From Candidatus Aenigmatarchaeota archaeon (GTDB lineage Archaea; Aenigmatarchaeota; Aenigmatarchaeia; Aenigmatarchaeales; Aenigmatarchaeaceae): a stretch of DNA of 64,000 nt. Location of the stretch: positions 48,768-112,767 of the forward strand of contig JBDRJK010000021.1 of the NCBI GenBank assembly GCA_043814985.1, in the 5' to 3' direction. The notes beneath the pieces were generated by a model. That model searched no databases, was not told the DNA's origin, and saw only the letters and a list, made by a program, of their open reading frames with translations. Below, in pieces: positions 5,027 through 18,245 of this stretch; position 1 is the first letter of the stretch, and each line of letters begins with the position of its first letter. Both the position numbers and the translations under genes were made by a program.

Positions 5027-5692
5027 ATGACAACCATTCTTGGTATTGACGAGGCCGGCCGCGGGTCAGTTATAGGCCCCATGTGCATCGGGGGCGTGGT
5101 TATTGACGAGAAGGACTCAGCCAAGCTAAAGGCTTTGGGAGTCAAGGACAGCAAGCTGTTAACTCCTGAGCAGAGAGAGGCTTTATATCCCAAGATAAAA
5201 AAACTGGCAAAGGATCATGTTGTTCTCAAGGTTTCTGCCAAGCAGATAGACCAGATGAGGAAGACAACCAACCTCAACAGGATTGAGGCTCAGAAGATGG
5301 CAGAGATAATCAAGGCCATGAATGCTGACAAGGCTTATGTTGACGCGCCGCAGGTCTCTACGGAAAAGTTCAAGAATATACTGCTGGCCTTGGCTGAGAA
5401 CAAAACTAAGATAATAGCTGAGAATCATGCTGATTTGAAATACCCTGTCTGTTCGGCAGCAGCCATACTCGCAAAAGTGGAGAGGGACAGGGATGTGGAG
5501 AGGATAAAGAAGATAGTGGGCTTTGACTTCGGAGTGGGCTATCCCCATGACCAGAGGAGCATTGACTTTGTCAAAAAGGCCTTAAAGGAGAAGAAACACT
5601 TGGAATTCTTAAGGCATTCATGGGTTACTGTGAGCAATCTTAAAAATGAGAAGGAACAAAAAACATTAAAAGAGTATAAGAGAAATAAATAA
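5027..5692 (+). CDS. rnhB: Ribonuclease HII
   Basis: GIDEAGRG, KDSK, SAAAILAKVERD, GYPHD and RHSW motifs. Confidence 0.96.
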   Translation: MTTILGIDEAGRGSVIGPMCIGGVVIDEKDSAKLKALGVKDSKLLTPEQREALYPKIKKLAKDHVVLKVSAKQIDQMRKTTNLNRIEAQKMAEIIKAMNADKAYVDAPQVSTEKFKNILLALAENKTKIIAENHADLKYPVCSAAAILAKVERDRDVERIKKIVGFDFGVGYPHDQRSIDFVKKALKEKKHLEFLRHSWVTVSNLKNEKEQKTLKEYKRNK

Positions 5693-5703
5693 GGAGGATT
5701 ATT

Positions 5704-5961
5704 ATGAAAAATACGAACAAGACAACTATTGTTTATGTGGTAAGCGGGATACTGATAGGCTATATTAGTTTCTTGCTTAACAGCGAGTTTCTAGCTCTGG
5801 GTCTGGCATTTGTATCTTTATTTTTGATTGCGGAAATATTGAAAAAGGCGTTGAAGATAGATTCTAAGTTCAAGTGGTTCTGGTCCCACGGTGGATGGGT
5901 ATACCTTTTCATCTGGTTCATAACATGGGTACTAGTCTGGAACCAGCCATTTGTTTTGTGA
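5704..5961 (+). CDS. Small 3-TM membrane protein (EMC6-like)
   Basis: 85 aa, three TM segments, ends G...YLFIWFITWV. Confidence 0.6.
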   Translation: MKNTNKTTIVYVVSGILIGYISFLLNSEFLALGLAFVSLFLIAEILKKALKIDSKFKWFWSHGGWVYLFIWFITWVLVWNQPFVL

Positions 5962-5965
5962 TTTT

Positions 5966-7309
5966 ATGATTGAGAATATTGGTGACTGGCAGAGAACACA
6001 TTATTCCAAGCAGGTCAAGCCGGAAATGGGCAATGAAGAAGTCATTGTGATGGGTTGGGTCAGAGAATTAAGGGACTTGGGTAAATTGAAGTTCATCAAG
6101 CTGGCTGACAGGGAAGGCTTCATACAGGTTACTGCAAAGGAAGGGGACGTCAAGCCGGATATAATCAATAAAATAGAAGGCTTGGGAAGGGAGGATGTCA
6201 TTGCTGTCAAGGGCATTGTAAAGGCAAGCAAGCAGGCTCCCAATGGAATCGAAATAATGCCAGTTGATGTGAGGATTCTTAACACTTCTGATTCACCATT
6301 GCCTCTAGAGCTGGAGACCAAGAAAACACCTGCTCACATTGATACGAGGATGAACTGGAGATTTTTAGATTTGAGGAAACATGAGAACAATCTCATATTC
6401 AAGATACAGACTGCAATGGAAATGGCCATGAGGGAATTCTGGATCAAGAATGGTTTCATTGAAATTCATTCTCCTAAATTAATGGGTTCTCAGAGCGAGA
6501 CAGGAGCAGAGCTGTTCACTGTTGTCTATTTTGACAGGGAAGCGTATCTGGCACAATCGCCCCAGTTCTACAAGCAGCTGGCAATGATTGCAGGTTTTGA
6601 TAGGGTTTTTGAGATAGCTCCTGTTTTCAGGGCCAATCCATCTCATACAGTTAGGCATGACACCGAGTACACTTCTATTGATATGGAGATGTCTTGGATA
6701 AGTTCACATGAGGATGTGATGGCATTTGAGGAAAAGTGGATTACCTATGTGATTGAACAAGTGAAGAAACAGTATGGAGACAAGATAAAGGAAACATTTG
6801 GTTTTGAATTGGTTGTTCCCAAAATACCTTTCCCAAGAATGACTCTCAAGGAAGCCAAGGATAAAATCAAGAAAACTGGTAAAAAGGTTTCATACAAAGA
6901 GGACCTTTCACCTGAGGAGGAAAGGCTTTTGGGAGAATTGGTAAAGGAAGAGTCCGGTCATGAGTTTGTGTTTGTGACTGAGTTCCCGTGGAAGATTAAG
7001 CCTTTCTATCACATGAGAGACGAGAAGAATCCTGGAGTGACAAAAGGTTTCGACTTACTGTGGAAAGGATTGGAAGTGACCACAGGCTCTCAGAGAGAGC
7101 ACAGGTATGACGTGTTGGTTGAGCAGGCAAAGGAGAAGAAGCTTAAGTTGGACAGCATAAAGTCTTATCTGGATTTTTTCAGGTATGGGGCGCCTCCACA
7201 TGGCGGTTTAGGTTTTGGTTTGACAAGGGCTCTTATGACAATGTTTGAAATGAAAAATGTGAGAGAGGTCACTTTCGCTTTCAGAGACATGGACAGGCTT
7301 TATCCTTAG
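5966..7309 (+). CDS. aspS: Aspartyl-tRNA synthetase, archaeal type (copy 1; probably non-discriminating)
   Basis: GWVRELRDLG, YLAQSPQFYKQ, FRAN..HT.RH..E, GSQREH and GAPPHGG motifs; Pro in the QAPNG loop. Confidence 0.95.
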   Translation: MIENIGDWQRTHYSKQVKPEMGNEEVIVMGWVRELRDLGKLKFIKLADREGFIQVTAKEGDVKPDIINKIEGLGREDVIAVKGIVKASKQAPNGIEIMPVDVRILNTSDSPLPLELETKKTPAHIDTRMNWRFLDLRKHENNLIFKIQTAMEMAMREFWIKNGFIEIHSPKLMGSQSETGAELFTVVYFDREAYLAQSPQFYKQLAMIAGFDRVFEIAPVFRANPSHTVRHDTEYTSIDMEMSWISSHEDVMAFEEKWITYVIEQVKKQYGDKIKETFGFELVVPKIPFPRMTLKEAKDKIKKTGKKVSYKEDLSPEEERLLGELVKEESGHEFVFVTEFPWKIKPFYHMRDEKNPGVTKGFDLLWKGLEVTTGSQREHRYDVLVEQAKEKKLKLDSIKSYLDFFRYGAPPHGGLGFGLTRALMTMFEMKNVREVTFAFRDMDRLYP

Positions 7310-7759
7310 GTGATTAAGATGAGAGAGTGTATATTTTGCGAAATTGTAAAGGGAAAAAGAGAAAAAAATCACAAGATTCTTGAAAATGATAAGCATCTGG
7401 CTTTTCTAGATATTTATCCTGTTACTAAGGGCCAAACCTTGGTTATACCTAAGAAGCACTACAAAGGTTTAGGTGTTTTTAGTCTTACAAGAAATGAATA
7501 TGAGGATTTGTTTCTCTTCGCTAAAAAGACCGCAAGAAAAATCAAGAAAAAACTCAAACCCAAGTTCATAATTATGGTCGTAGAGGGCATGATGATTGAT
7601 CATCTTCACATAAAGCTTTATCCTATATACAAAATACAAAAGAAGTCTGACAACAGGCTTCTAAAGCCTTATCAGCCATATAAAGGATATTTGATAACCC
7701 AGATAGGGCCGAAAGCCAGTGAAAAAAAACTTAAAAGAATAGCCCGCCTTCTTTCCTGA
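7310..7759 (+). CDS. HIT family hydrolase (variant HxHxK motif)
   Basis: CIFCEIV, AFLDIYP, LVIPKKH and HLHIKLYP; start GTG 7310 or ATG 7319. Confidence 0.88.
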   Translation: MIKMRECIFCEIVKGKREKNHKILENDKHLAFLDIYPVTKGQTLVIPKKHYKGLGVFSLTRNEYEDLFLFAKKTARKIKKKLKPKFIIMVVEGMMIDHLHIKLYPIYKIQKKSDNRLLKPYQPYKGYLITQIGPKASEKKLKRIARLLS

Positions 7760-7825
7760 AGAATTTCTATTATATATTTAAAGTTTACTACTATATTGTA
7801 ATACATAAATTAGGAGTGTGTTATT

Positions 7826-9172
7826 ATGGTAGAAATTAATTATAATGAAAAACAGATTGAATTGCTTCTAGGAAAGAGAAAACAAAATGCAGAAGTGACA
7901 GAAAGAGATTTTGGTAGCGATGTTGTTGTCGCAGGATACATAAAGAATATAGCAGATCTTGGTAAAAATATGAAGTTTCTAACTTTGGCAGATGCCTCAG
8001 GGGAAATACAACTGACGTTAAAGAAAGGAGTTTATGTTGGAGTTGAGGATGCTAAAATGCTCACCCCTCATACCTTTATTGTTGCGAAAGGTGAGGCATG
8101 TAAAGGAAGGGCTAAAGACGGTCGTGAAGTTCTTGTAAAAGATATTAGTCTTTTGAGCGATGTTGTAACAGAGAAGATTCCAACAGAGATGAGGACCAGT
8201 CTTGACAAGAGATTGGATTACAGGTGGGTGGATTTGAGGAATGAAAAGCACAGGTTCCCTCTTACAATGGTTTCCGAGTTCACAAGGTATTCAAGGGACT
8301 TTTTCAATGAAAACGGCTTCACTGAAATTTTCACGCCAAAGATAGTGGGTACTCCAACTGAGGGTGGAGCAGAGGCGTTCCCTGTTCTTTATTTTGACAG
8401 GGAAGCGTATCTGGCACAATCGCCCCAGTTCTACAAGCAAATGGCTATATGCTCTGGTTTTGACAGGGTTTTTGAGATAGCTCCTGTTTTCAGGGCCAAT
8501 CCATCCCACACTACAAGGCATGATACCGAGTACACCTCTTTGGATTTCGAGATAGGGTACATTACATCGCATCAGGATGTAATGAAAGCCGAAGAGGGTA
8601 TGCTGAGCCATGTTTTCAAAAACATTAAAGAGAAGTATGGGGATAAAATCAGGAAGAAATTCAAACAGGAGATAGACGTTCCTAAAAATATACCTCAAAT
8701 AAGGATGGAGGAAGCTTACGAGATTGTAACAAAGGAAGATGTAGACGAAAAAGGCAGCTTGAGACCATCAGGGGAGAAGGCTGTTTCTGAACATGTTAAG
8801 GAAGCATACGGAAGTGATTTCATCTTTATAACAGATTTCCCTTATGATGCTAGACCTTTTTATCATATGAAGGGTGAAGCTATGAGGAACGGTAAAGAGA
8901 CTACGAAGAGCTTTGACCTGATTTACAGAGGTGTAGAGATTACAACAGGCGCTCAGAGGGAACACAGGCACGGAAAATTAACAGCCCAAGTGGTTGAGAA
9001 AGGCTTAAGTACTAATAATCTAAAACAATATCTAGATTTTTTCAAGTACGGAGCACCTCCCCACGGTGGTATCGGGTTGAGCCCTAGTAGAGTTGTCACG
9101 AACATGCTTGATCTCGGGAATGTGAGGGAAGCAACAATGGCTCCGAGGGATCCGAAAAGACTGTTTCCATAG
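7826..9172 (+). CDS. aspS: Second aspartyl-tRNA synthetase paralogue
   Basis: EGGA, YLAQSPQFYKQ, GAQREH and GAPPHGG intact; anticodon OB domain divergent. Confidence 0.9.
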   Translation: MVEINYNEKQIELLLGKRKQNAEVTERDFGSDVVVAGYIKNIADLGKNMKFLTLADASGEIQLTLKKGVYVGVEDAKMLTPHTFIVAKGEACKGRAKDGREVLVKDISLLSDVVTEKIPTEMRTSLDKRLDYRWVDLRNEKHRFPLTMVSEFTRYSRDFFNENGFTEIFTPKIVGTPTEGGAEAFPVLYFDREAYLAQSPQFYKQMAICSGFDRVFEIAPVFRANPSHTTRHDTEYTSLDFEIGYITSHQDVMKAEEGMLSHVFKNIKEKYGDKIRKKFKQEIDVPKNIPQIRMEEAYEIVTKEDVDEKGSLRPSGEKAVSEHVKEAYGSDFIFITDFPYDARPFYHMKGEAMRNGKETTKSFDLIYRGVEITTGAQREHRHGKLTAQVVEKGLSTNNLKQYLDFFKYGAPPHGGIGLSPSRVVTNMLDLGNVREATMAPRDPKRLFP

Positions 9173-9181
9173 GTTGTTTAT

Positions 9182-10489
9182 TTGCTGAATAGAGACTTAA
9201 TAAAAAATGTTAAAAAACAAGATAAAGAAAAAGACGTTAACGTTTTTGGATGGCTTAAAAACAAAAAGGATTTTGGCAAAATAATCATTTTGAGAATAGT
9301 TGATTCTTCTGGAGAGATTCGTGCTGTGGCAAAGACCAAAATATTGAAAGAGAACTCTTTTCTTGATATCAAGAAGCTCAAGAAGGAATCCTGTATAAAT
9401 GTTATGGGAAATTACGATTCCAAAAAGAAAGAAATCCAGATAAAAGAAATAAAAATTATTGCAGCTGCTACTAAGTCTATATCGCCCTCCGCAAGGGATG
9501 ATTTTGATATCTATAATCAGAAATACACAAGTCTTGTCTGCGATAACAGGCACATCTATTTGAGAAACGAGAAAATTGCCACAATACTCAAGATTAGGAG
9601 CATGTTCATGGAGGAAATGCGCGATTACTTCCAAAAGAACAATTTCATCAATTTTAGCGCACCGATTTTGACCAACATAACACTTTATGGCGACAAGACA
9701 GCCTTTGATATTGATTTCTGTGGTAAGAAACTCTACCTCACACAATGCACAGCATTCTATCTGGAGTCTGCTATACCGGCTTTCGAGAAGGTTTATTTCA
9801 TGTCGCCTTCTTTCAGGAATGAAAAGTCTAAGAGCAGGAGGCATCTTAGCGAATACTGGCACTGCAAAGGAGAAATAGCTTTTTGTGATTTAGAAGGAAT
9901 GATGAAGTTTGTAGAGAATATGACATACACTGTCTACAAAAATCTAGTAAAAAACGCAGGAGAGGAGATGAGGAAAATAACCAAAATAGATTTTAACAAA
10001 TTCAAGCCACCTTACAAGTCAATTACCTATGAAAAGGCCGTTGAAGTTCTACAGAATAATGGTTTCAAAATAAAGTTTGGTCAAAGCATTGGGAGTGACG
10101 AAGAAAGATTCTTAGGTGAGAGGATGAAAAAAATGTTTTGGATCAAGTTCCTACCAAGAAAGGTGGAGGCATTCCCCTACAGAATCAACCCTTCTGATGA
10201 AAGAACAACACTGACGGCAGACCTCTTGTGCAATGAGTCTGGCGAGATATTGGGAACCGCTGAAAAGATATATCAAAAGGAAGAATTGGAAAGAAGGATG
10301 AGGGAGGATTTCGTTGCACATCCAAAAGAAATTTACAAATGGTACATAGAGCTTAGAGAAATGGGCTTGCCGCCGCATAGTGGTTTTGGTATGGGTGTGG
10401 AAAGAGTCTTGAGAAGTTTTCTTAATCTTAAACATGTAAGGGATGTTATACCTTATCCAAGACTTTATACAAGATTACCTTATCCTTGA
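9182..10489 (+). CDS. Divergent AsnRS-like class IIb synthetase paralogue
   Basis: OB domain plus motif 2 (FRNEKSKSRRHLSEYWH) and motif 3 (PPHSGFGMGVER); substrate loops non-canonical; TTG start. Confidence 0.85.
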   Translation: MLNRDLIKNVKKQDKEKDVNVFGWLKNKKDFGKIIILRIVDSSGEIRAVAKTKILKENSFLDIKKLKKESCINVMGNYDSKKKEIQIKEIKIIAAATKSISPSARDDFDIYNQKYTSLVCDNRHIYLRNEKIATILKIRSMFMEEMRDYFQKNNFINFSAPILTNITLYGDKTAFDIDFCGKKLYLTQCTAFYLESAIPAFEKVYFMSPSFRNEKSKSRRHLSEYWHCKGEIAFCDLEGMMKFVENMTYTVYKNLVKNAGEEMRKITKIDFNKFKPPYKSITYEKAVEVLQNNGFKIKFGQSIGSDEERFLGERMKKMFWIKFLPRKVEAFPYRINPSDERTTLTADLLCNESGEILGTAEKIYQKEELERRMREDFVAHPKEIYKWYIELREMGLPPHSGFGMGVERVLRSFLNLKHVRDVIPYPRLYTRLPYP

Positions 10490-11382
10490 TTTAATAATAT
10501 TTCTATATTTTCAGAACCAATTTTTTTAAGAGTATCGTCATTGAAATCTAAGTTCATAAAACTCTTTACAACATTCATATATTTTTCTTCAGTAATGTAG
10601 GGTAAATCTGTTCCGAATAATATCTTTTCAGCACCCAATGTTTTGATTAGAAAATCATATACGTCTTTACAATTCTTTTTGGTTTTAGCTGCAAACCTAT
10701 CCAAAAGACTGGTTTCAACAAAAACATTCTTTGTCTTTCTAGCATTTTCCAATACACCAGTGTCAAGCCTAGCACAGTGGGCAATTATGAAGCTTACAGA
10801 GGGATAGCATCTGGCAAGTTCTATTATATTAGAAGGTAGTGAGTTTTCATCCTCACCTGAATGCGAGATAAAAACAAGGCCGTTTTCCTTGACAATATCC
10901 ATTATTTCTGTTTTAGCTAGTTTTTTTGGGGAGAAATTAGTTACAAAGGGATGTATTTTAACACCTATTATACCTTTCTCAATATAATCATTCAGACATT
11001 TCACATTTTTAGGGTATCTCGGGTCTATTATTATGAAAGGTAATAAATCCTTGTTTCTTTTCCCAATGCCAATTATCTTTTCATTTTCTTTGTGATAGGG
11101 GTTTTCCTTGATTTTCCACCTTCCCTTACAGAGGGGGCATTCCAGAATGTAATGGTCTTCATGGACGCTTAAACATGTGGGGGAAAGACCGTAAGATTTG
11201 CAGTTTTTATTTTCACATGTTAGCTCTCTTACGCTTGGGCAGGGGAAAATTACAGATTTTTCAACCCCATTTTTTCTCATTAAATCTAATAGCCTACTTT
11301 CTGATAACGATATCTTTCTATCAGTCTTTCTGTTATAATAGTAATCGTTTCCTATATGCACGTGGCAGTCTGTTATTTTCAT
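10480..11382 (-). CDS. Metal-dependent amidohydrolase (Amidohydro_2-like TIM barrel) with a Cys-rich insertion
   Basis: DCHVH, GVKIHP, HSG, IIAH and LFGTDLP motifs. Confidence 0.88.
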   Translation of the reverse strand: MKITDCHVHIGNDYYYNRKTDRKISLSESRLLDLMRKNGVEKSVIFPCPSVRELTCENKNCKSYGLSPTCLSVHEDHYILECPLCKGRWKIKENPYHKENEKIIGIGKRNKDLLPFIIIDPRYPKNVKCLNDYIEKGIIGVKIHPFVTNFSPKKLAKTEIMDIVKENGLVFISHSGEDENSLPSNIIELARCYPSVSFIIAHCARLDTGVLENARKTKNVFVETSLLDRFAAKTKKNCKDVYDFLIKTLGAEKILFGTDLPYITEEKYMNVVKSFMNLDFNDDTLKKIGSENIEILLNQG

Positions 11383-11441
11383 AATTATAATTATATATGG
11401 AAACCATAAATTTTATAAGTTTCTAATATTCTAATGATGTT

Positions 11442-11621
11442 ATGGCTTGGTCTATAAACAATGAAAAATGCATTAGATGTGGAGGCTGTGTTTCAGTCTG
11501 CCCTTTTGCTGCATTAGAGCTGGATGACGATGTTATTCATGATGAAAAGCTGTGCACTTTGTGCGGAATTTGCGAGAAAGCTTGTCCTGTAAGAGCAATA
11601 GAGGTGAAAAAAGATGGGTAA
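11442..11621 (+). CDS. 2x[4Fe-4S] ferredoxin (59 aa)
   Basis: Read manually: CIRCGGCVSVCP and CTLCGICEKACP; not in the ORF track. Confidence 0.92.
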   Translation: MAWSINNEKCIRCGGCVSVCPFAALELDDDVIHDEKLCTLCGICEKACPVRAIEVKKDG

Positions 11622-11685
11622 GAAAAGGAGCTGGAAAACTGGGAAATCCCAGACCAAATATTCAAGAGAGAAGAAGAAAAAATGA
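11614..11685 (+). CDS. Putative 23-aa basic micropeptide (MGKKRSWKTGKSQTKYSREKKKK)
   Basis: Strong SD GAGGTGA at 11601-11607; overlaps the ferredoxin stop and ends 4 nt before the GGR start. Confidence 0.5.
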   Translation: MGKKRSWKTGKSQTKYSREKKKK

Positions 11686-11689
11686 TACT

Positions 11690-12835
11690 ATGTACGATGT
11701 GATAATTGTCGGCGCTGGTCCTGCTGGAAGCTCTTGTGCCAAGAGGTTGGTAGAGAAGGGTTTCTCTGTTAAGATATTTGACAGGAGAGAGGAGTTAGGA
11801 GTTCCTGTCAGGTGCGGGGAAGGCTTGAGCGAGCATGCTCAGGATATTATAGGTAAGATTCCCAAAGAATGCATTTCCCAGAATATCAAGGGAGCCAGGG
11901 TATATGCCCCAAACGGCAAGTACTTGGAAGCTGTGCTTGAGACTGGAGGATTCATACTGGACAGGAGAAAGTTTGACAAGTGGTTGGCAGAGAAGGCTGA
12001 GAAGGCAGGCGCGGAAATACAGAAGGACACCCTGATCACCGATTTCATAGTGGAGGACGGCTACTACATCGGAGTCAAGGGCGAGGGCTTTGAGGAAAAG
12101 GCAAGAATGGTTGTCTGCGCCACAGGAGCCGAGTCTGCTTTAAGGAAGTCTTTGAAGGTCTTCTCAAAGCTGGAGCTTATTGATTCTTGCTTGCAATATA
12201 AAATGTCCGGCATTGGTTCGGACCAGGATTTCATCCACATTTATCTTGGGAACGAGATATCTCCAAGGGGATACACTTGGGTGTTTCCAAAGGGAGGCGA
12301 CAAGGGCAATGTCGGAGTGGGCATCATTCCAGGAGAAAAAACAGCCAAGCACTATCTGGACAAGTTCATTAAGGAGACCGATGAACTGAAGAACGGCGAA
12401 ATATACTTGGTCGAGGGAGGCTGCGTTCCTGTTGGCGGCATGCTGAAGGATGCAGTGGATAATGGTTTATTGCTGTGCGGCGAGGCAGCGCATTATGTCA
12501 ACCCCATACATGGTGGCGGCATAAAGGAAGGTATCGTATCAGGTTTTTTGGCTGCTGATGTCATTGCAGAATGTTTAAAGAATAATGATGTTTCCAAAAA
12601 AGCCCTGTCCAAGTACAATGACTTGTGGTGGGAGCAGAGAGGCAACAAGCTGAAGAAGGTGGAGAAGCTGAGGGAAGTTCTCGAGAAGCTCTCTGACAAG
12701 GATTTGAACGAGTTGCTTGATGTTCTCAAGCCAGAGGACATTGTTGATTTCACCAGGGGAGCCAAACTCTCTGTTCTTGCAAAGGCCCTCATGAGAAAGC
12801 CCAGGTTGTTAGGACTGGCTAGGCACTTGATGTAA
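11690..12835 (+). CDS. Geranylgeranyl reductase (DGGGPL reductase family)
   Basis: YDVIIVGAGPAG, PVRCGEG, PRGYTWVFPKG and NPIHGGGI motifs; adjacent ferredoxin. Confidence 0.93.
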   Translation: MYDVIIVGAGPAGSSCAKRLVEKGFSVKIFDRREELGVPVRCGEGLSEHAQDIIGKIPKECISQNIKGARVYAPNGKYLEAVLETGGFILDRRKFDKWLAEKAEKAGAEIQKDTLITDFIVEDGYYIGVKGEGFEEKARMVVCATGAESALRKSLKVFSKLELIDSCLQYKMSGIGSDQDFIHIYLGNEISPRGYTWVFPKGGDKGNVGVGIIPGEKTAKHYLDKFIKETDELKNGEIYLVEGGCVPVGGMLKDAVDNGLLLCGEAAHYVNPIHGGGIKEGIVSGFLAADVIAECLKNNDVSKKALSKYNDLWWEQRGNKLKKVEKLREVLEKLSDKDLNELLDVLKPEDIVDFTRGAKLSVLAKALMRKPRLLGLARHLM

Positions 12836-12898
12836 TCAGCTTATTTAATAACAATACAAATAATTATTTTATCTAAGTTGCAATATTCTAGTGGTAAG

Positions 12899-15376
12899 AT
12901 GACGAGAATAGAAAAATTAGATATACAGGGTTTCAAGTCCTTTTCCAGGAAGACTTCCCTAACTTTCCCTAGCAACTTCTCTGTGATATGCGGTCCCAAC
13001 GGCTCTGGCAAGTCCAACATACTTGACGCGTTATGTTTCGTTCTGGGAAGGACCTCTGCCAAAAGCTTGAGGGCTGACAGGATGATGGAGATGATATTCC
13101 ACGGCACAAAGAATAGGCCTCCCGCAGAGCTGGCAAAGGTCTCAATGCATTTTGACAACTCAAGTAAAGAGTTCCCCTTTGAGGATGACAAGGTCATCCT
13201 GTCCAGGAGAATAAACAGGAAAGGCATTTCCATTTACAAATTAAACGGAAGGACTGTTACAAGGGAAAGGATCCAGGAGATTCTCAGGCCTGTCAGAATC
13301 CGACCTGGCGGCCACAATATAATTTTGCAGGGAGATGTCACTGAGATAGTTGAGATGAGTCCTCTGGAAAGAAGAGAGATTATTGATGAGATATCTGGGA
13401 TAAAGGAGTTCGACCAGAAGAGAGACAAGGCCCAACGCGAGTTGATGACAGTCGAGAACCGGTTAAAGGAGTCGCATATCATTCTTCACGAGAAAAGGTC
13501 AAACCTTGTCAGGCTTGAAAAGGAGAGTAAAGATGCTCAAAGATACCAGAAGCTGACAAGGGAACTTGATAAATTAAGAGCCTCTTTGGCAAGGCACAAG
13601 CTGAGTGTTGCTGAGAAGGCAATGGCAAAGCTCGACGAGAAAATAAGTAATATCGAGACAGGTGACATTGACAAGGAAGTTGATGTGATAGAGAAGGAGT
13701 TGGAGAGGGTTGAGAAGGAGAGGGATGTTGTTGACAAGAGGCTTTTTGACAGGACCAAGGACATTGCCATAATTAAAGAAGTTGAGAAGATAAGGTCTGA
13801 GATAAACAGGAACAGGGACAAGATAGATATGGGACAGCTCAACATAAGAAGGACAGAGGACGTGATAAGGAGATTAGAATACTTGCAGCAGAAGGAGAGG
13901 GAAGGTTCTGTCAGCAAGGCTGTCAAGGAGATAATGAACCTTGGTTGGACAGGAGTATACGGGACAATTTCCTCGTTGTCAAAGGTTTCCAAGAAGCACC
14001 AGTCAGCAATTGAGGTGGCTGCTGGCCCGCATCTTAATGATATAATTGTTTCTGATGAAAGGGTTGCAATTGAGTGCGTTAACCATTTGAAGAAAAACAA
14101 GATTGGGAGGGCAACGTTTCTTCCCCTGAACAAGATAAAAACAAGGGACAGCAAAGGTCTGAAGAAGTTCTCTTATGATGACGGCTTTGTTGGCATAGCA
14201 ATCGATTTGGTAGAGTTTGACAACAAGTACTACAATGCATTTTCTCATGTTTTCGGGAGCACTGTCATTGCCAACACAATCAGTGATGTCAGGAGGATGG
14301 GCATAGGCAATGCTAGGTTTGTAACTCTTGAAGGAGACTTGATAGAGAGGTCAGGAGCAATAATCGGCGGTTATTACATCAAGAAGAGGGTCTTTTCTGG
14401 CAAGGAGGAGATTGAAAAATATACTAATGACAAGGCAAAGCTGGCTGCTGACATCAAGGTTCTGGAGAAGGATATTGTTTCTCTGAAAGCTCAGTTGGAG
14501 TCTTTAACAACTGAGGAGGAAACTGGCAGCAAGGAATTGACTGACATGCAGAAGAAAAGGCAGATGCTGGAAGAGATGTTCGACTCATTGGAAAAGAAGA
14601 GGAAGAGTATGTTCCACGAGAGGATGAACTCCCAGGAGAGCATTAACAAATTAAGAATTAGAAAGGCAAGGCTTGAGGCGGAATTAGAAAACCTTAAACT
14701 GGAGTTCGAGAACTACAAGAAGACCGAGACGCTTGACATTACCCCGTCTGTTCTGGAAAATAGGATACACCAGACCACTGTCTACATAAACGCTTTGGGA
14801 CTGATAAACATGAAGGCTCTTGAGGAGTATGACGAGCAGAAGATAATATTCACCGATCTTAAGGAGAAGGTCGACAAGTTGACAGAGGAGAGGAACAAGA
14901 TTCTAGAGATAATAGCCGAGATTGAGGGCAAGAGGAAGGAGTCATTTACCAAGACCCTGGATGAATTGAGAAAGGAGTTCAAGATTGTTTTCCATGACTT
15001 GATGAAGGGCGAGGCTGATTTGAGGCTGATAGGCGGTATGGACAGTGGCTTATTGATTGAAGGCAGTGCAAAAACTAAAAAGATGATGAACATAGATTTG
15101 ATGTCTGGTGGCGAGAAGACCTTGACTGCTCTAGCATTCCTGTTTGCCATCCAGAGGTTCAGGCCAGCGCCGTTTTATATTCTTGACGAGATTGACGCTG
15201 CTTTAGATAAACCGAACACCAAAAAGACAGTTGAGTTGATTAAGAAGTATTGCGACAATTCCCAGTTTATTGTTATTTCACATAATGAAGCGACAATCCA
15301 GGCAGCTGATTCTGTGTACGGAGTTTCTATGGAAGAAGGGGAGTCTAGGTTGGTTGGAATAAAGATGCCTGGCTAA
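12899..15376 (+). CDS. smc: Chromosome segregation ATPase Smc, short-armed (about 825 aa)
   Basis: GFKSF, Walker A GPNGSGKSN, hinge (GVYG..GRATFLPL..VTLEG..GAIIGG), MSGGE and LDEIDAALD. Confidence 0.95.
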   Translation: MTRIEKLDIQGFKSFSRKTSLTFPSNFSVICGPNGSGKSNILDALCFVLGRTSAKSLRADRMMEMIFHGTKNRPPAELAKVSMHFDNSSKEFPFEDDKVILSRRINRKGISIYKLNGRTVTRERIQEILRPVRIRPGGHNIILQGDVTEIVEMSPLERREIIDEISGIKEFDQKRDKAQRELMTVENRLKESHIILHEKRSNLVRLEKESKDAQRYQKLTRELDKLRASLARHKLSVAEKAMAKLDEKISNIETGDIDKEVDVIEKELERVEKERDVVDKRLFDRTKDIAIIKEVEKIRSEINRNRDKIDMGQLNIRRTEDVIRRLEYLQQKEREGSVSKAVKEIMNLGWTGVYGTISSLSKVSKKHQSAIEVAAGPHLNDIIVSDERVAIECVNHLKKNKIGRATFLPLNKIKTRDSKGLKKFSYDDGFVGIAIDLVEFDNKYYNAFSHVFGSTVIANTISDVRRMGIGNARFVTLEGDLIERSGAIIGGYYIKKRVFSGKEEIEKYTNDKAKLAADIKVLEKDIVSLKAQLESLTTEEETGSKELTDMQKKRQMLEEMFDSLEKKRKSMFHERMNSQESINKLRIRKARLEAELENLKLEFENYKKTETLDITPSVLENRIHQTTVYINALGLINMKALEEYDEQKIIFTDLKEKVDKLTEERNKILEIIAEIEGKRKESFTKTLDELRKEFKIVFHDLMKGEADLRLIGGMDSGLLIEGSAKTKKMMNIDLMSGGEKTLTALAFLFAIQRFRPAPFYILDEIDAALDKPNTKKTVELIKKYCDNSQFIVISHNEATIQAADSVYGVSMEEGESRLVGIKMPG

Positions 15377-16015
15377 TTACAACTCTTTAATTGCTGGTAA
15401 ATCCGAAATCCTAATAACAGCATCTTCCGGTATTTTCAACATGCTTCTGCAATCAATGCCGAAAATTCCCGTTTTCTTTCCCCCTTCTTTCCCAAAACCA
15501 TAAACATGGTAATCAACAGGTCCCAGAGAGGTTTCGGCAATTTTTTCTCCTGAGCCGTTTTTTACTAAATTATCTATTTCCCTCTTTAAAAATTCTAAAT
15601 GACATTCTTGCGTAATGATAACACCTTTTTTATTTTCTCCTTCCTTCTGCTGGTAATTCAAACACACTAAACCCCCTGCCACAAATTCATTCTTATAATT
15701 ATTTTTCCTTTGAATTTTCTTAGCCTTTCTTGTCAATTTTTTAGAAAGTTTATAGGGCATTTTCTTATTTTTAGAACAAGCATAACTTACTGTCTCAATA
15801 ATTTCTTCCATTCCTTCTGGTCTGTGCAACTCTGAACAGCTATTGCATACACCTACAAGGGTGTAGTTTTTCCCTTCAAACAGTTTATATGCGGCTCTTT
15901 CAATTTCAGCCTTAAGTTGGACTTCTTTCCTCCCTGTAACCTCTGATATAATTTTGTTAATGTCTGATGCACCTTCTCTTAACTCATTAACATACAAAGG
16001 TTTTTGGCGTGACAT
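15377..16015 (-). CDS. Hypothetical protein
   Basis: 212-aa ORF fills the gap; one CxxC; no family recognised. Confidence 0.6.
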   Translation of the reverse strand: MSRQKPLYVNELREGASDINKIISEVTGRKEVQLKAEIERAAYKLFEGKNYTLVGVCNSCSELHRPEGMEEIIETVSYACSKNKKMPYKLSKKLTRKAKKIQRKNNYKNEFVAGGLVCLNYQQKEGENKKGVIITQECHLEFLKREIDNLVKNGSGEKIAETSLGPVDYHVYGFGKEGGKKTGIFGIDCRSMLKIPEDAVIRISDLPAIKEL

Positions 16016-16123
16016 AGAATTTAATTGAAAGGAAAAGGATTTAAGCCTTTCTCGGTGTTGTTGGAAAAGCCGGGAACAATCCTGCAGATATCTTTATACG
16101 GTTTACAACAAAAGAAAATAGCT

Positions 16124-16921
16124 ATGGAAGAAAAATTCATAATCCAAGTTGAGAATCTCACGAGGAAGTTCGGGAATTTTACAGCAGTGGATGACATCTC
16201 CTTCAAGGTCAAAACCGGAGAAATATTCGCTTTCCTGGGCCCGAACGGAGCTGGGAAGACGACGACCATCAAAATGCTGACAACGCTTCTCAAACCGACT
16301 TCCGGCAGCATGAACATCAACGGCTTCGATTCCGTGGCCAAGCAAAACGAAACGAGGAGCTCCTTTGGGATAGTGTTTCAGGACCCCAGCCTGGATGACG
16401 AGCTGACCGCTTACGAGAACATGGAGTATCACGGCGTGCTGTACAAGATTCCCAAGGACATCAGGAAGAAGAGGATAGAGGAGATGCTGAGATTCGTCGA
16501 ACTCTGGGACAGAAAAAAAGATCTGGTGAAGACTTTTTCCGGTGGAATGAAAAGGCGGTTGGAAATCGCGTGCGGGCTCTTGCACCATCCGAAGATTTTC
16601 TTCCTGGACGAGCCGACCTTGGGGTTGGACCCTCAGACAAGAAACCATATCTGGGAGTACATACAGAAGCTGAACAGGGAAGAGGGGACCACAATATTTT
16701 TTACGACGCATTACATGGAGGAGGCTGCCAAGGTCTCAAGTGTCATAGCAATCATCGACGGAGGAAAAATAATAGCCCAGGGAACTGCAGAGGAGCTGAA
16801 GGCAACAACAAAGACCGCCTCCCTTGAAGACGCTTTCATAAGCCTGACCGGCAAACAGATACGGGAGGAAGACGCAAGCAGCGCTGACCGCATGAGAATG
16901 CGACGCAGGATGTTCAGGTGA
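16124..16921 (+). CDS. ABC exporter ATP-binding subunit (DrrA-like)
   Basis: GPNGAGKT, FSGGMKRRLE, LDEPT and TTHYMEEA motifs. Confidence 0.93.
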   Translation: MEEKFIIQVENLTRKFGNFTAVDDISFKVKTGEIFAFLGPNGAGKTTTIKMLTTLLKPTSGSMNINGFDSVAKQNETRSSFGIVFQDPSLDDELTAYENMEYHGVLYKIPKDIRKKRIEEMLRFVELWDRKKDLVKTFSGGMKRRLEIACGLLHHPKIFFLDEPTLGLDPQTRNHIWEYIQKLNREEGTTIFFTTHYMEEAAKVSSVIAIIDGGKIIAQGTAEELKATTKTASLEDAFISLTGKQIREEDASSADRMRMRRRMFR

Positions 16922-17679
16922 TGAATATGGATGCTAATGTAATTTTCGTTCTTTGGAAAAGGCAGCTGAAGAGATACTTCCGCTCAAGGTCCAGGATGAT
17001 AGGCTCGGTAGCGCAGCCCCTGCTGTTCCTGTTTGCATTCGGTTTTGGGTTCAGTTCGGTTTTCCAACAGGCAGGGCAGGGCAATTACTTCCAGTTCCTA
17101 GCGCCAGGAATCGTTTCCATGGCCATACTTTTCACTTCAATTTTCACTGGAATAGAAATAATCTGGGACAGGCAGTTCGGCTTTCTCAAGGAGACACTGG
17201 TTGCACCCGTGTCCAGGCTTGAAATCATGATTGGCAAGACCCTGGGCGGGGCGACCGTGGCAAGCCTTCAGGGAATCATTGTGATAGGCATATCATTGCT
17301 TGTAGGTTTCGTTCCCTATAGCCTTGTGATGATTCCTGTGGCCTTTGCCTTCATGTTCCTGATTGCCACGCTCTTTGCAGCGATCGGGACTGCGATTGCT
17401 TCGCTCTTGGAGGACATGCAGGGCTTCCAGCTTATCATGAACTTCTTTGTGATGCCCATATTCTTCCTGTCGGGGGCCCTGTTCCCGCTGGAGGGGCTGC
17501 TGGAAGTGGTTGGGATACTTTCAAAGGTGAACCCACTTTCGTACGGGGTCGACGGCATCCGTTCCGCTCTTACAGGTGTCAGCTACTTCGGGTTTGCAAT
17601 CGATTTCGCAGTCCTTGGCGTTTCAACGGCAGTCTGCCTTGCTGTCGGCAGCTATCTCTTCTCCAAGATGCAGATATGA
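16921..17679 (+). CDS. ABC-2 type permease (DrrB-like)
   Basis: FLAPG, DRQFGFLKE, FLSGALFP and NPLSYGVD motifs. Confidence 0.92.
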   Translation: MNMDANVIFVLWKRQLKRYFRSRSRMIGSVAQPLLFLFAFGFGFSSVFQQAGQGNYFQFLAPGIVSMAILFTSIFTGIEIIWDRQFGFLKETLVAPVSRLEIMIGKTLGGATVASLQGIIVIGISLLVGFVPYSLVMIPVAFAFMFLIATLFAAIGTAIASLLEDMQGFQLIMNFFVMPIFFLSGALFPLEGLLEVVGILSKVNPLSYGVDGIRSALTGVSYFGFAIDFAVLGVSTAVCLAVGSYLFSKMQI

Positions 17680-17720
17680 TGGCTTAGAAAAAATTTAAAT
17701 TTCCTCCCTCTATTTACTTT

Positions 17721-18245
17721 ATGTTAAACATCTACCAGCCAGCAGAAGACTCGTTCCTCTTGGAAAAGTATGTAAAGAAACTGGCAAGGGGAAAAGTCCT
17801 GGACATGGGCACAGGTTCAGGAATACAGGCAAAGGCTGCTTTAGAAAGAACTGATTCTGTTACAGCAGTTGACATCAATCCAGAAGTGATCGAGCACTGC
17901 AAGAGCATCAAGAACGTTGAGTTCATCCAATCCGACCTCTTCTCCTCTGTCACTGGCAAGTTCGACACGATAATATTCAACGCACCATATCTTCCTGAAG
18001 AGGGTCCCAAGGACCCTGCCTTAGATGGAGGAAAGAAAGGACATGAAACAATAGAAAGGTTCCTGAGCCAGGTAAAGGAGTTCCTTTCAAAGGACGGAAT
18101 AATACTCCTGGTCTTCTCATCATTCACTAACAAGGAAAAGGTGGATCACTTAATTGTGGAGAACGGCTTCAGGTTTGAAGAGTTGGAAAGGATACACTTC
18201 TCCTTCGAGAACATCTACTGCTACAAGATAACTATTTCTTTCTAA
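17721..18245 (+). CDS. HemK2/PrmC-like release factor glutamine methyltransferase
   Basis: YQPAEDSFLL, LDMGTGSG, FNAPYLP and DGG..G motifs. Confidence 0.88.
   Translation: MLNIYQPAEDSFLLEKYVKKLARGKVLDMGTGSGIQAKAALERTDSVTAVDINPEVIEHCKSIKNVEFIQSDLFSSVTGKFDTIIFNAPYLPEEGPKDPALDGGKKGHETIERFLSQVKEFLSKDGIILLVFSSFTNKEKVDHLIVENGFRFEELERIHFSFENIYCYKITISF

Follow-up and report, generated by a model that had tools for sequence, protein, structure and literature searches.

What does an enzyme with the architecture of an asparaginyl-tRNA synthetase (AsnRS) do once the pocket for its amino acid has been replaced? The question is raised by a gene in a 64,000-nucleotide stretch of Candidatus Aenigmatarchaeota archaeon DNA (assembly GCA_043814985.1, contig JBDRJK010000021.1, positions 48,768 to 112,767, forward strand), hereafter the window. 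A first-pass annotation, made from the letters of the window, had described the product as an AsnRS-like paralogue with a remodelled pocket and lost anticodon contacts, and had proposed an ATP-dependent ligase that activates a non-standard substrate or serves a non-cognate RNA, protein or small-molecule acceptor. Here, we report a computational analysis of this protein, its family and the genes that surround it.

The open reading frame starts with TTG and encodes 435 amino acids without internal stops, and the sequence from 9038 to 10904 is repeated letter for letter in a contig assembled from a different run within that study. Pfam places an OB domain at residues 19-92 and tRNA-synt_2 at residues 120-427; the OB domain is therefore retained, unlike in the archaeal asparagine synthetase AS-AR, as had been stated at the outset. 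The closest solved structure by sequence is the Pyrococcus horikoshii AsnRS 1x54 (E 6.5e-73), and the superposition that the first-pass annotation had suggested, performed with an AlphaFold model (pLDDT 93.7), gave a TM-score of 0.90, which makes 1x54 the nearest solved structure by fold as well. The AsnRS-type combination of an OB anticodon domain and a class IIb catalytic domain is thus present. The protein scores under both NCBIfam AsnRS cut-offs (319 versus 414 bits and 299 versus 343 (342.6) bits) and under both of the nearest AS-AR cut-offs (PRK06462; 141 versus 368 and 122 versus 309), and was unmatched in PADLOC. A search for repeats, promoters and terminators gave nothing informative over the shuffled background.

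The pocket was assessed from alignments, the residues of 1x54 being numbered by counting along its alignment with the paralogue. ATP motifs 2 and 3 are retained in this alignment and the four replacements described earlier were all recovered, namely VEGG to LYGD in the flipping loop, QSAQLY to QCTAFY, KAFY to EAFPY and GGSQRE to GTAEKI, together with one change that had escaped the first reading, E228 of P. horikoshii to K229. Residue by residue, the differences are E168 to Y169, S188 to C189, Q190 to A191 (Ala or Gly in the family), E228 to K229, K330 to E329, Y333 to P332, Q363 to E361 and R364 to K362. We take E168, S188 and Q190 to be the residues with which AsnRS grips the alpha-amino group, E228 to be the Glu that reads the amide and R364 to be the contact to the side-chain oxygen; the last two are both replaced, by K229 and K362. 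The ATP/Mg residues R212, E214, R220, H221, D347, E355 and R408 are all present.

Among the best 120 database matches listed, the top 78 share these pocket motifs as one block, and the remainder are ordinary AsnRS. In an alignment of 78 score-selected sequences (the query and 77 of the block, the fragment P0005 being omitted), L168, C189, K229, P332 and A360 do not vary, and Y169, E329, E361 and K362 reach at least 90% conservation, so that the changes are not due to chance; R212, D347, E355 and R408 are invariant in the same sequences. A second set of 128 members below 80% identity was selected by motif, which makes its C189 and K229 counts circular; it retains R212, E355 and R408 in 127 members each and D347 in all 128. 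To judge from the sequences, the pocket is rewired alike across the whole family with the ATP/Mg residues intact. Searching 50%-identity representatives with a profile brought in further, more divergent members. In a FastTree tree of 103 proteins, 74 members stand on one side of a branch with support 100, against 24 canonical AsnRS on the other; the family is a separate clade, and the nesting among AsnRS orthologues that had been named as counting against an unusual function was not found.

The clade spans uncultured archaeal and bacterial lineages and extends to a small number of fungi. Among the bacteria, the named sources comprise Nealsonbacteria, Atribacteria, Deltaproteobacteria, Lachnospiraceae and Bacteroidia, among others, and the fungal members include proteins of Penicillium hordei, P. 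thymicola and Apiospora aurea, the first with an extra N-terminal domain resembling AAA_18/CPT-type P-loop kinases. A P-loop kinase-like domain is fused to, or precedes, the fungal members (Penicillium, Apiospora; P0266, P0154, L113, L127, L144 and L104), and at three metagenome loci the gene is in pieces (introns or decay). An AsnRS of the same class as the host groups with a named Aenigmatarchaeota sequence in the FastTree tree (support 81), which makes it likely that the host belongs to this phylum. Within the archaeal phylum of the window, at least 4 of 371 genomes carry the paralogue (G000, which is the window's genome, G001, G175 and G289), the copies in G175 and G289 being divergent and scoring like ordinary AsnRS; under a strict threshold, each of two other archaeal phyla has it in at least 1 of 401 genomes. 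There were no matches to the family pattern in viral contigs, and the best listed matches in phage and plasmid records, 32-36% identical, were ordinary synthetases or AgnA-like genes. Canonical AsnRS occurs alongside the paralogue in G372, G373, G602, G1157 and L142, hence the latter is not the housekeeping enzyme. Neither canonical asnS nor gatB was found in the window's genome (91% complete); since gatB is also missing, and the two genes are adjacent in G011 and G012, an assembly gap is likelier than a true absence of asnS. Members are often annotated as asparaginyl-tRNA synthetase in databases. Neither clade nor cassette was found in the literature searched, which lay mostly outside subscription journals and supplements, nor are they mentioned in the accessible parts of two reviews (PMC9437257, PMC7916415) and of AARS Online (PMC11580382).

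With regard to the anticodon, the reported change of R..F..Q to K..I..R is true of the window protein (K29, I36, R47 and E84) and does not describe its family: R29 is kept in 120 of the 128 members, F36 in 122, Q47 in 113 and E84 in 111. Among the 15 members listed, two or three of the R/F/Q residues are lost in the window protein (KIRE) and in those of loci L129 (NIQE) and L155 (RIIE), which together form one branch of the FastTree tree, and the loss of anticodon contacts is, on this reading of the residues, a local trait of that branch. The R..F..Q pattern itself fits the housekeeping AspRS gene aspS1 of the window, whereas the adjacent extra aspS has Ala at the first position. Since most members keep the anticodon contacts, the family points to an involvement of tRNA(Asp/Asn) rather than of a non-cognate RNA or protein acceptor, and this part of the original proposal is not supported; what is supported is an AsnRS-derived paralogue that lies outside canonical AsnRS, with its ATP machinery intact and an unusual pocket.

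In the window (Table 1), the gene order is rnhB, a small ORF, aspS1, a HIT hydrolase of the MccH type, an extra aspS, the paralogue and, on the opposite strand, an amidohydrolase. The same-genus genome G013 aligns to the window through 7698 and again from 11406 and has aspS1 and a HIT at this site, whereas G012 has no HIT there. GC3 is 0.31-0.41 in the segment absent from G013, against 0.49-0.58 in the flanking housekeeping genes, and is also lower in the HIT gene. The extra AspRS is 45% identical to aspS1, the tree places it closest to the partner AspRS from locus L155, and no close match to it was found in the other 370 genomes (E 1e-122). We consider aspS1 to be the presumed target and landing site. 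Relatives of the amidohydrolase (cluster c5) lie near the paralogue in L117, L129, L130, L147 and L155 and beside an AgnA-like gene in G1157; a search by sequence returned no solved relatives. No ThiF/MccB, S51 or S66 match was found in the window's genome. As separate observations, ARAGORN called a tRNA-Pyl and a tRNA-Stop in this genome (C1:15164-15250 and C13:20278-20390) which by eye are intron-bearing tRNA-Gly(CCC) and tRNA-Gln(UUG), and a suppressor-tRNA explanation was dropped; G001 has at the syntenic rnhB site an aspS with a degenerate aspartate motif (L225:1117-2463) and a second AspRS by gatAB; and the archaeal genome G602 has a bacterial-length AspRS of 597 aa with gatB upstream (L285).

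Table 1. Features at the paralogue locus, in window coordinates.
Feature	Position	Strand	Remarks
Housekeeping AspRS, aspS1	5951..7309	+	Syntenic in G012 and G013; over the NCBIfam non-discriminating AspRS cut-off
MccH-type HIT hydrolase	7310..7759	+	MccH-clade motif ExxxxxHxHxK
Segment of about 3.7 kb (extra aspS, paralogue, amidohydrolase)	7699..11405		Absent at the same site in G013
Extra archaeal-type AspRS	7826..9172	+	Aspartate pocket intact; 9 nt upstream of the paralogue
AsnRS-derived paralogue	9182..10489	+	OB domain and class IIb catalytic domain
Amidohydro_2 protein	10480..11382	-	Overlaps the 3' end of the paralogue by 10 nt

The subfamily search and neighbourhood survey that had been recommended recovered the family together with AspRS and microcin C immunity-type neighbours. 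A family-specific DNA pattern matched 119 metagenome stretches in 50 of 64 parts, 80 of them with flanks; with six near-duplicates removed, the survey comprised 76 loci, 21 of which extend 3 kb to either side. An archaeal-type AspRS lies within 3 kb of the paralogue at 19 of the 21 full-context loci (53 of 76 overall), and an MccH-type HIT, S51 or S66 gene at 15 (40 of 76), rising to 17 (46 of 76) when two amidohydrolase groups are added. The controls came from a generic motif-3 scan of 5 of the 64 parts, which gave 80 loci, three of them members and the other 77 controls; not one of the 55 full-context loci of ordinary asnS showed such a neighbour, a comparison whose neighbour profiles derive from the test loci themselves, whose controls belong mostly to other taxa and in which related loci are not independent.

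The neighbouring HITs carry ExxxxxHxHxK in 22 of 22 cases, two near-duplicate pairs included, and the other HIT of the window's genome lacks it. The single S66 neighbour examined gave E-values of 1e-65 to 1e-51 with MccF-family structures and of 1e-21 with murein carboxypeptidase, and the S51 neighbours in related loci rest on their Pfam S51 assignment. In the accessible part of PMC7157772, ExxxxxHxHxK is the MccH signature, and the earliest-branching MccH homologues, one from Parcubacteria, may differ in specificity. The accessible parts of PMC9239234, PMC7157772 and PMC8323819 describe MccF (S66), MccG (S51) and MccH as defences against isoaspartyl-nucleotides that block AspRS.

The partner AspRS keeps its aspartate pocket and usually lies 10-60 nt from the paralogue. 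Pairwise distances within the two proteins are correlated (Mantel r 0.79 over 40 pairs, 0 of 2000 permutations as high), which shows co-inheritance, not binding. Archaeal and bacterial partners belong to different AspRS lineages in a quick tree (47-row bacterial group, support 85). The pair is often found beside a second, housekeeping-type aspS, and in L002 and L135 the cassette AspRS is followed by a C-terminal fragment of bacterial aspS, as if the cassette had displaced the host gene. No exporter recurs (the 12 multi-membrane ORFs that lie within 4 kb, spread over 9 loci, include no repeated efflux pump) and no MccA-like precursor peptide was seen among ORFs of at least 60 aa. The paralogue stands unlinked, without partners, in G602, G001, L088, L090 and the fungal loci. 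Three unlinked S66 genes elsewhere in G602, and MccH and S51 elsewhere in G1157, fit production and protection alike. MccH-type HITs occur in 44 of 371 genomes of the phylum, and of 30 loci with such a HIT, six are beside ordinary aspS/asnS, three beside the paralogue cassette and one beside an AgnA-like gene; the enrichment of immunity genes may mark a hotspot for genes that protect AspRS. These HITs of the phylum (L241-L270, L213), repeatedly placed beside ordinary aspS/asnS, may be orphan immunity genes or may repair synthetase side-products.

Several other genes of the related loci deserve record in their own right. L129 (2761-4764) and L155 (1606-3639) encode a HemA-like glutamyl-tRNA reductase fused to a class IIb catalytic domain without an anticodon domain; the catalytic Cys is kept, the TCNR-type motif reads KCNC and an iron alcohol dehydrogenase gene adjoins. 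This fusion, present as 8 clusters in the protein database, looks like an undescribed, putatively aspartate-reducing enzyme. Between hisS and the truncated aspS of L002 lies a Lachnospiraceae cluster (6597-17776) with the paralogue, a GARS-like ATP-grasp, a HAD/kinase-like protein, a class IIa synthetase-like core, an AAA_28 kinase, an HD protein and the archaeal-type AspRS. Membrane-anchored proteins of no Pfam family are encoded between the paralogue and its AspRS at L003:11290-12462 and L135:6473-7273; by eye, we presume the former to recall a TyrRS-type Rossmann fold and the latter a PLD-like domain. Upstream of the paralogue in L130 is a fusion of an AlaRS-like catalytic domain and a methyltransferase (5063-7324), along with an S66 gene; a small conserved non-Pfam protein (cluster c6, for example L085:9390-9722) lies directly upstream at several bacterial loci; and L098:3767-9109 has GNAT, NUDIX, sulfotransferase-like and apparent sulfate-activation genes convergent with the paralogue.

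The reading we lean towards, with confidence that stops a little short of an even chance, is that the paralogue is an AgnA-like adenylating enzyme which makes an aspartyl-nucleotide inhibitor of AspRS and is accompanied by self-protection genes. The neighbours, the extra AspRS and the microcin C immunity types that the first-pass annotation had left out of account, narrow the chemistry to an aspartyl-nucleotide; the enzyme would use ATP to make a stable inhibitor of this kind, akin to the warhead of microcin C. Most members keep the anticodon residues and would therefore draw the activated Asx unit from Asn-tRNA or Asp-tRNA; in the branch of the window protein, L129 and L155, where those residues are relaxed, a free precursor may serve instead. 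A nitrogen of the Asx unit would then be joined to AMP, as MccB does via a succinimide and as has been proposed for AgnA; the succinimide or Asx-tRNA route is suggested by analogy with MccB and by the conserved anticodon domain. Removal of the product would fall to interchangeable genes of the MccH, S51, MccF-like and amidohydrolase types, while the extra AspRS, presumably a spare copy of the inhibitor's target, would buffer it. MccH itself acts on processed microcin C by cutting its P-N bond. As no conserved exporter accompanies the genes, the product is proposed to act inside the cell, in addiction or abortive defence, or by contact with a host cell.

Several observations argue for production. 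Among them are the enrichment of AspRS and immunity-type genes around the paralogue, the MccH motif of the neighbouring HITs, the MccF-like S66 neighbour, the co-divergence with the partner AspRS, the aspS fragments in L002 and L135, and the AgnA-like genes that lie with MccH in G1157 and L263. The retained ATP/Mg residues fit an active ATP-using enzyme better than a sponge, and since all the residues to which we assign the alpha-amino grip are replaced, the pocket does not appear tuned to hold a finished warhead as AspRS does. No ThiF/MccB family (PF00899) match was found in G000, G001, G371 and G373, with one in G372 on a different contig. The same layout is seen on pAgK84 (agnA-methyltransferase-leuS) and on a plasmid of Xenorhabdus (agnA-like-methyltransferase-LD-carboxypeptidase-leuS), and the closest relatives with context, L129 and L155, carry the reductase fusion with the iron alcohol dehydrogenase. 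Against production, MccH-type HITs are common without the paralogue, which is itself alone at some loci; a conserved exporter or precursor peptide is lacking; the extra AspRS bears no apparent sign of resistance in its sequence; AgnA, whose own role is a proposal, lacks the pocket changes; and the reductase fusion is absent from the window's genome.

The family resembles P. horikoshii AsnRS in domain order, fold and ATP motifs 2 and 3, and most members also share its anticodon residues, but it differs in its rewired pocket, separate clade, patchy occurrence and coexistence with true AsnRS. Agrocin 84 offers a similar logic, an AsnRS-derived adenylating domain (AgnA, the AsnRS-like gene of pAgK84) beside an extra copy of the targeted synthetase (AgnB2), and an adjacent extra synthetase is what 19 of 21 paralogue loci and the window have. 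In the accessible parts of PMC8323819 and PMC4392301, AgnA is proposed to form an acyl-phosphoramide. In contrast to the paralogue, to which it is 26% identical, AgnA lacks an anticodon domain and has other pocket residues, so that the paralogue does not qualify as AgnA-type (catalytic domain only, AgnA-type pocket); the agn cluster targets LeuRS and includes an exporter along with many tailoring genes. Microcin C (mcc) clusters share the S66, S51 and MccH-type HIT families, AspRS as the implied target and a GNAT (in L135 and L098), whereas the paralogue loci are without MccB/ThiF or a conserved exporter, showed no MccA-like precursor among ORFs of at least 60 aa and have a second AspRS as constant partner. 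AS-AR/AsnRS2 (PDB 1nnh, 3p8t) is likewise a class IIb paralogue with altered use of its active site, but has no OB domain, and the paralogue falls far under its models and differs in the pocket. The parts are known and the logic is like that of agrocin 84 and microcin C, but the protein falls outside AsnRS, AS-AR and AgnA, and the locus outside mcc clusters. Two AgnA-like class IIb paralogues without an OB domain, judged as such by motifs at 26% identity, were encountered beside MccH genes in small archaea, one in G1157 (L295:6413-7546), where a cluster c5-group amidohydrolase also adjoins, and the other at L263:774-2033.

A wider and more speculative form of the production reading, which we put at distinctly less than even, is an undescribed way of making a microcin C-type poison of AspRS without a peptide. 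In it, an AsnRS would have turned into a tRNA-dependent P-N-forming enzyme, whose cassette would land at aspS with its own AspRS and swappable immunity genes, spread among ultra-small archaea and bacteria and have jumped to fungi, while sister branches would diversify the product by the HemA-synthetase fusion and other tailoring enzymes.

The most serious rival, unlikely yet not to be set aside lightly, is that every part of the cassette serves protection, the paralogue itself breaking down or recycling an aspartyl-nucleotide warhead that enters the cell; pyrophosphorolysis, hydrolysis through Cys189 and aspartyl transfer to tRNA are examples of how it might do so. All neighbours of known role are indeed protective, the loci have no exporter, lone copies of the paralogue exist and MccH clusters with ordinary aspS/asnS where the paralogue is absent; the other neighbours are of typical modifying or hydrolysing classes (GNAT, NUDIX, HD, HAD, kinases), and fungal copies are fused to an AAA_18/CPT-type P-loop kinase-like domain. 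In a warhead binder, however, one would expect retained alpha-amino contacts and an origin from AspRS rather than AsnRS, the reductase-synthetase fusion and dehydrogenase of L129/L155 are left unexplained, and production too predicts more orphan immunity genes than producers.

We regard as improbable a non-canonical tRNA(Asn/Asp) enzyme that provides a back-up route to Asx-tRNA, be it by placing Asp on tRNA(Asn) or by amidating Asp-tRNA(Asn) through adenylation of the beta-carboxyl. The family-wide conservation of the anticodon residues would suit it, K229 and K362 could bind a carboxylate, and the paralogue follows gatB in L088 and L090, a place that asnS holds in G011 and G012. The Lys in the L1 loop of the bacterial partner AspRS also speaks for this route, since we take it to mark a discriminating enzyme, which would leave tRNA(Asn) uncharged. 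Against these stand the loss of every alpha-amino contact, hosts that often keep canonical AsnRS, a window copy without three of the four anticodon residues, and MccH, S51 and S66 genes that go unexplained.

It is less credible by a wide step that the paralogue forms a heterodimer with the extra AspRS and alters its sensitivity or activity; the close spacing of the genes, their co-divergence and the dimeric nature of class IIb synthetases agree with such a subunit, but lone copies exist in archaea and fungi, the paralogue's catalytic residues are strictly conserved and the archaeal and bacterial partners come from different lineages. To an ordinary divergent AsnRS or AS-AR-type asparagine synthetase we attach next to no probability: canonical asnS was not found in the window's genome and database labels favour the name, but gatB is missing too, which makes an assembly gap likelier, the scores lie under the HMM cut-offs, the clade is separate, the amide-reading Glu is now Lys and the pocket is unlike that of the aligned AS-AR-like proteins.

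If the paralogue is a producer, it would offer a one-enzyme route to an aminoacyl-nucleotide antibiotic and, for the unproven AgnA reaction, the first counterpart in logic that can be put to the test. It would likewise be a likely source of the pressure behind many orphan MccH, MccF and MccG genes, and a toxin system in lineages thought to be nearly devoid of secondary metabolism. If the cassette is instead protective, the paralogue would represent a new resistance mechanism derived from a synthetase. On either reading, members of this family that are labelled AsnRS should not be counted as AsnRS.
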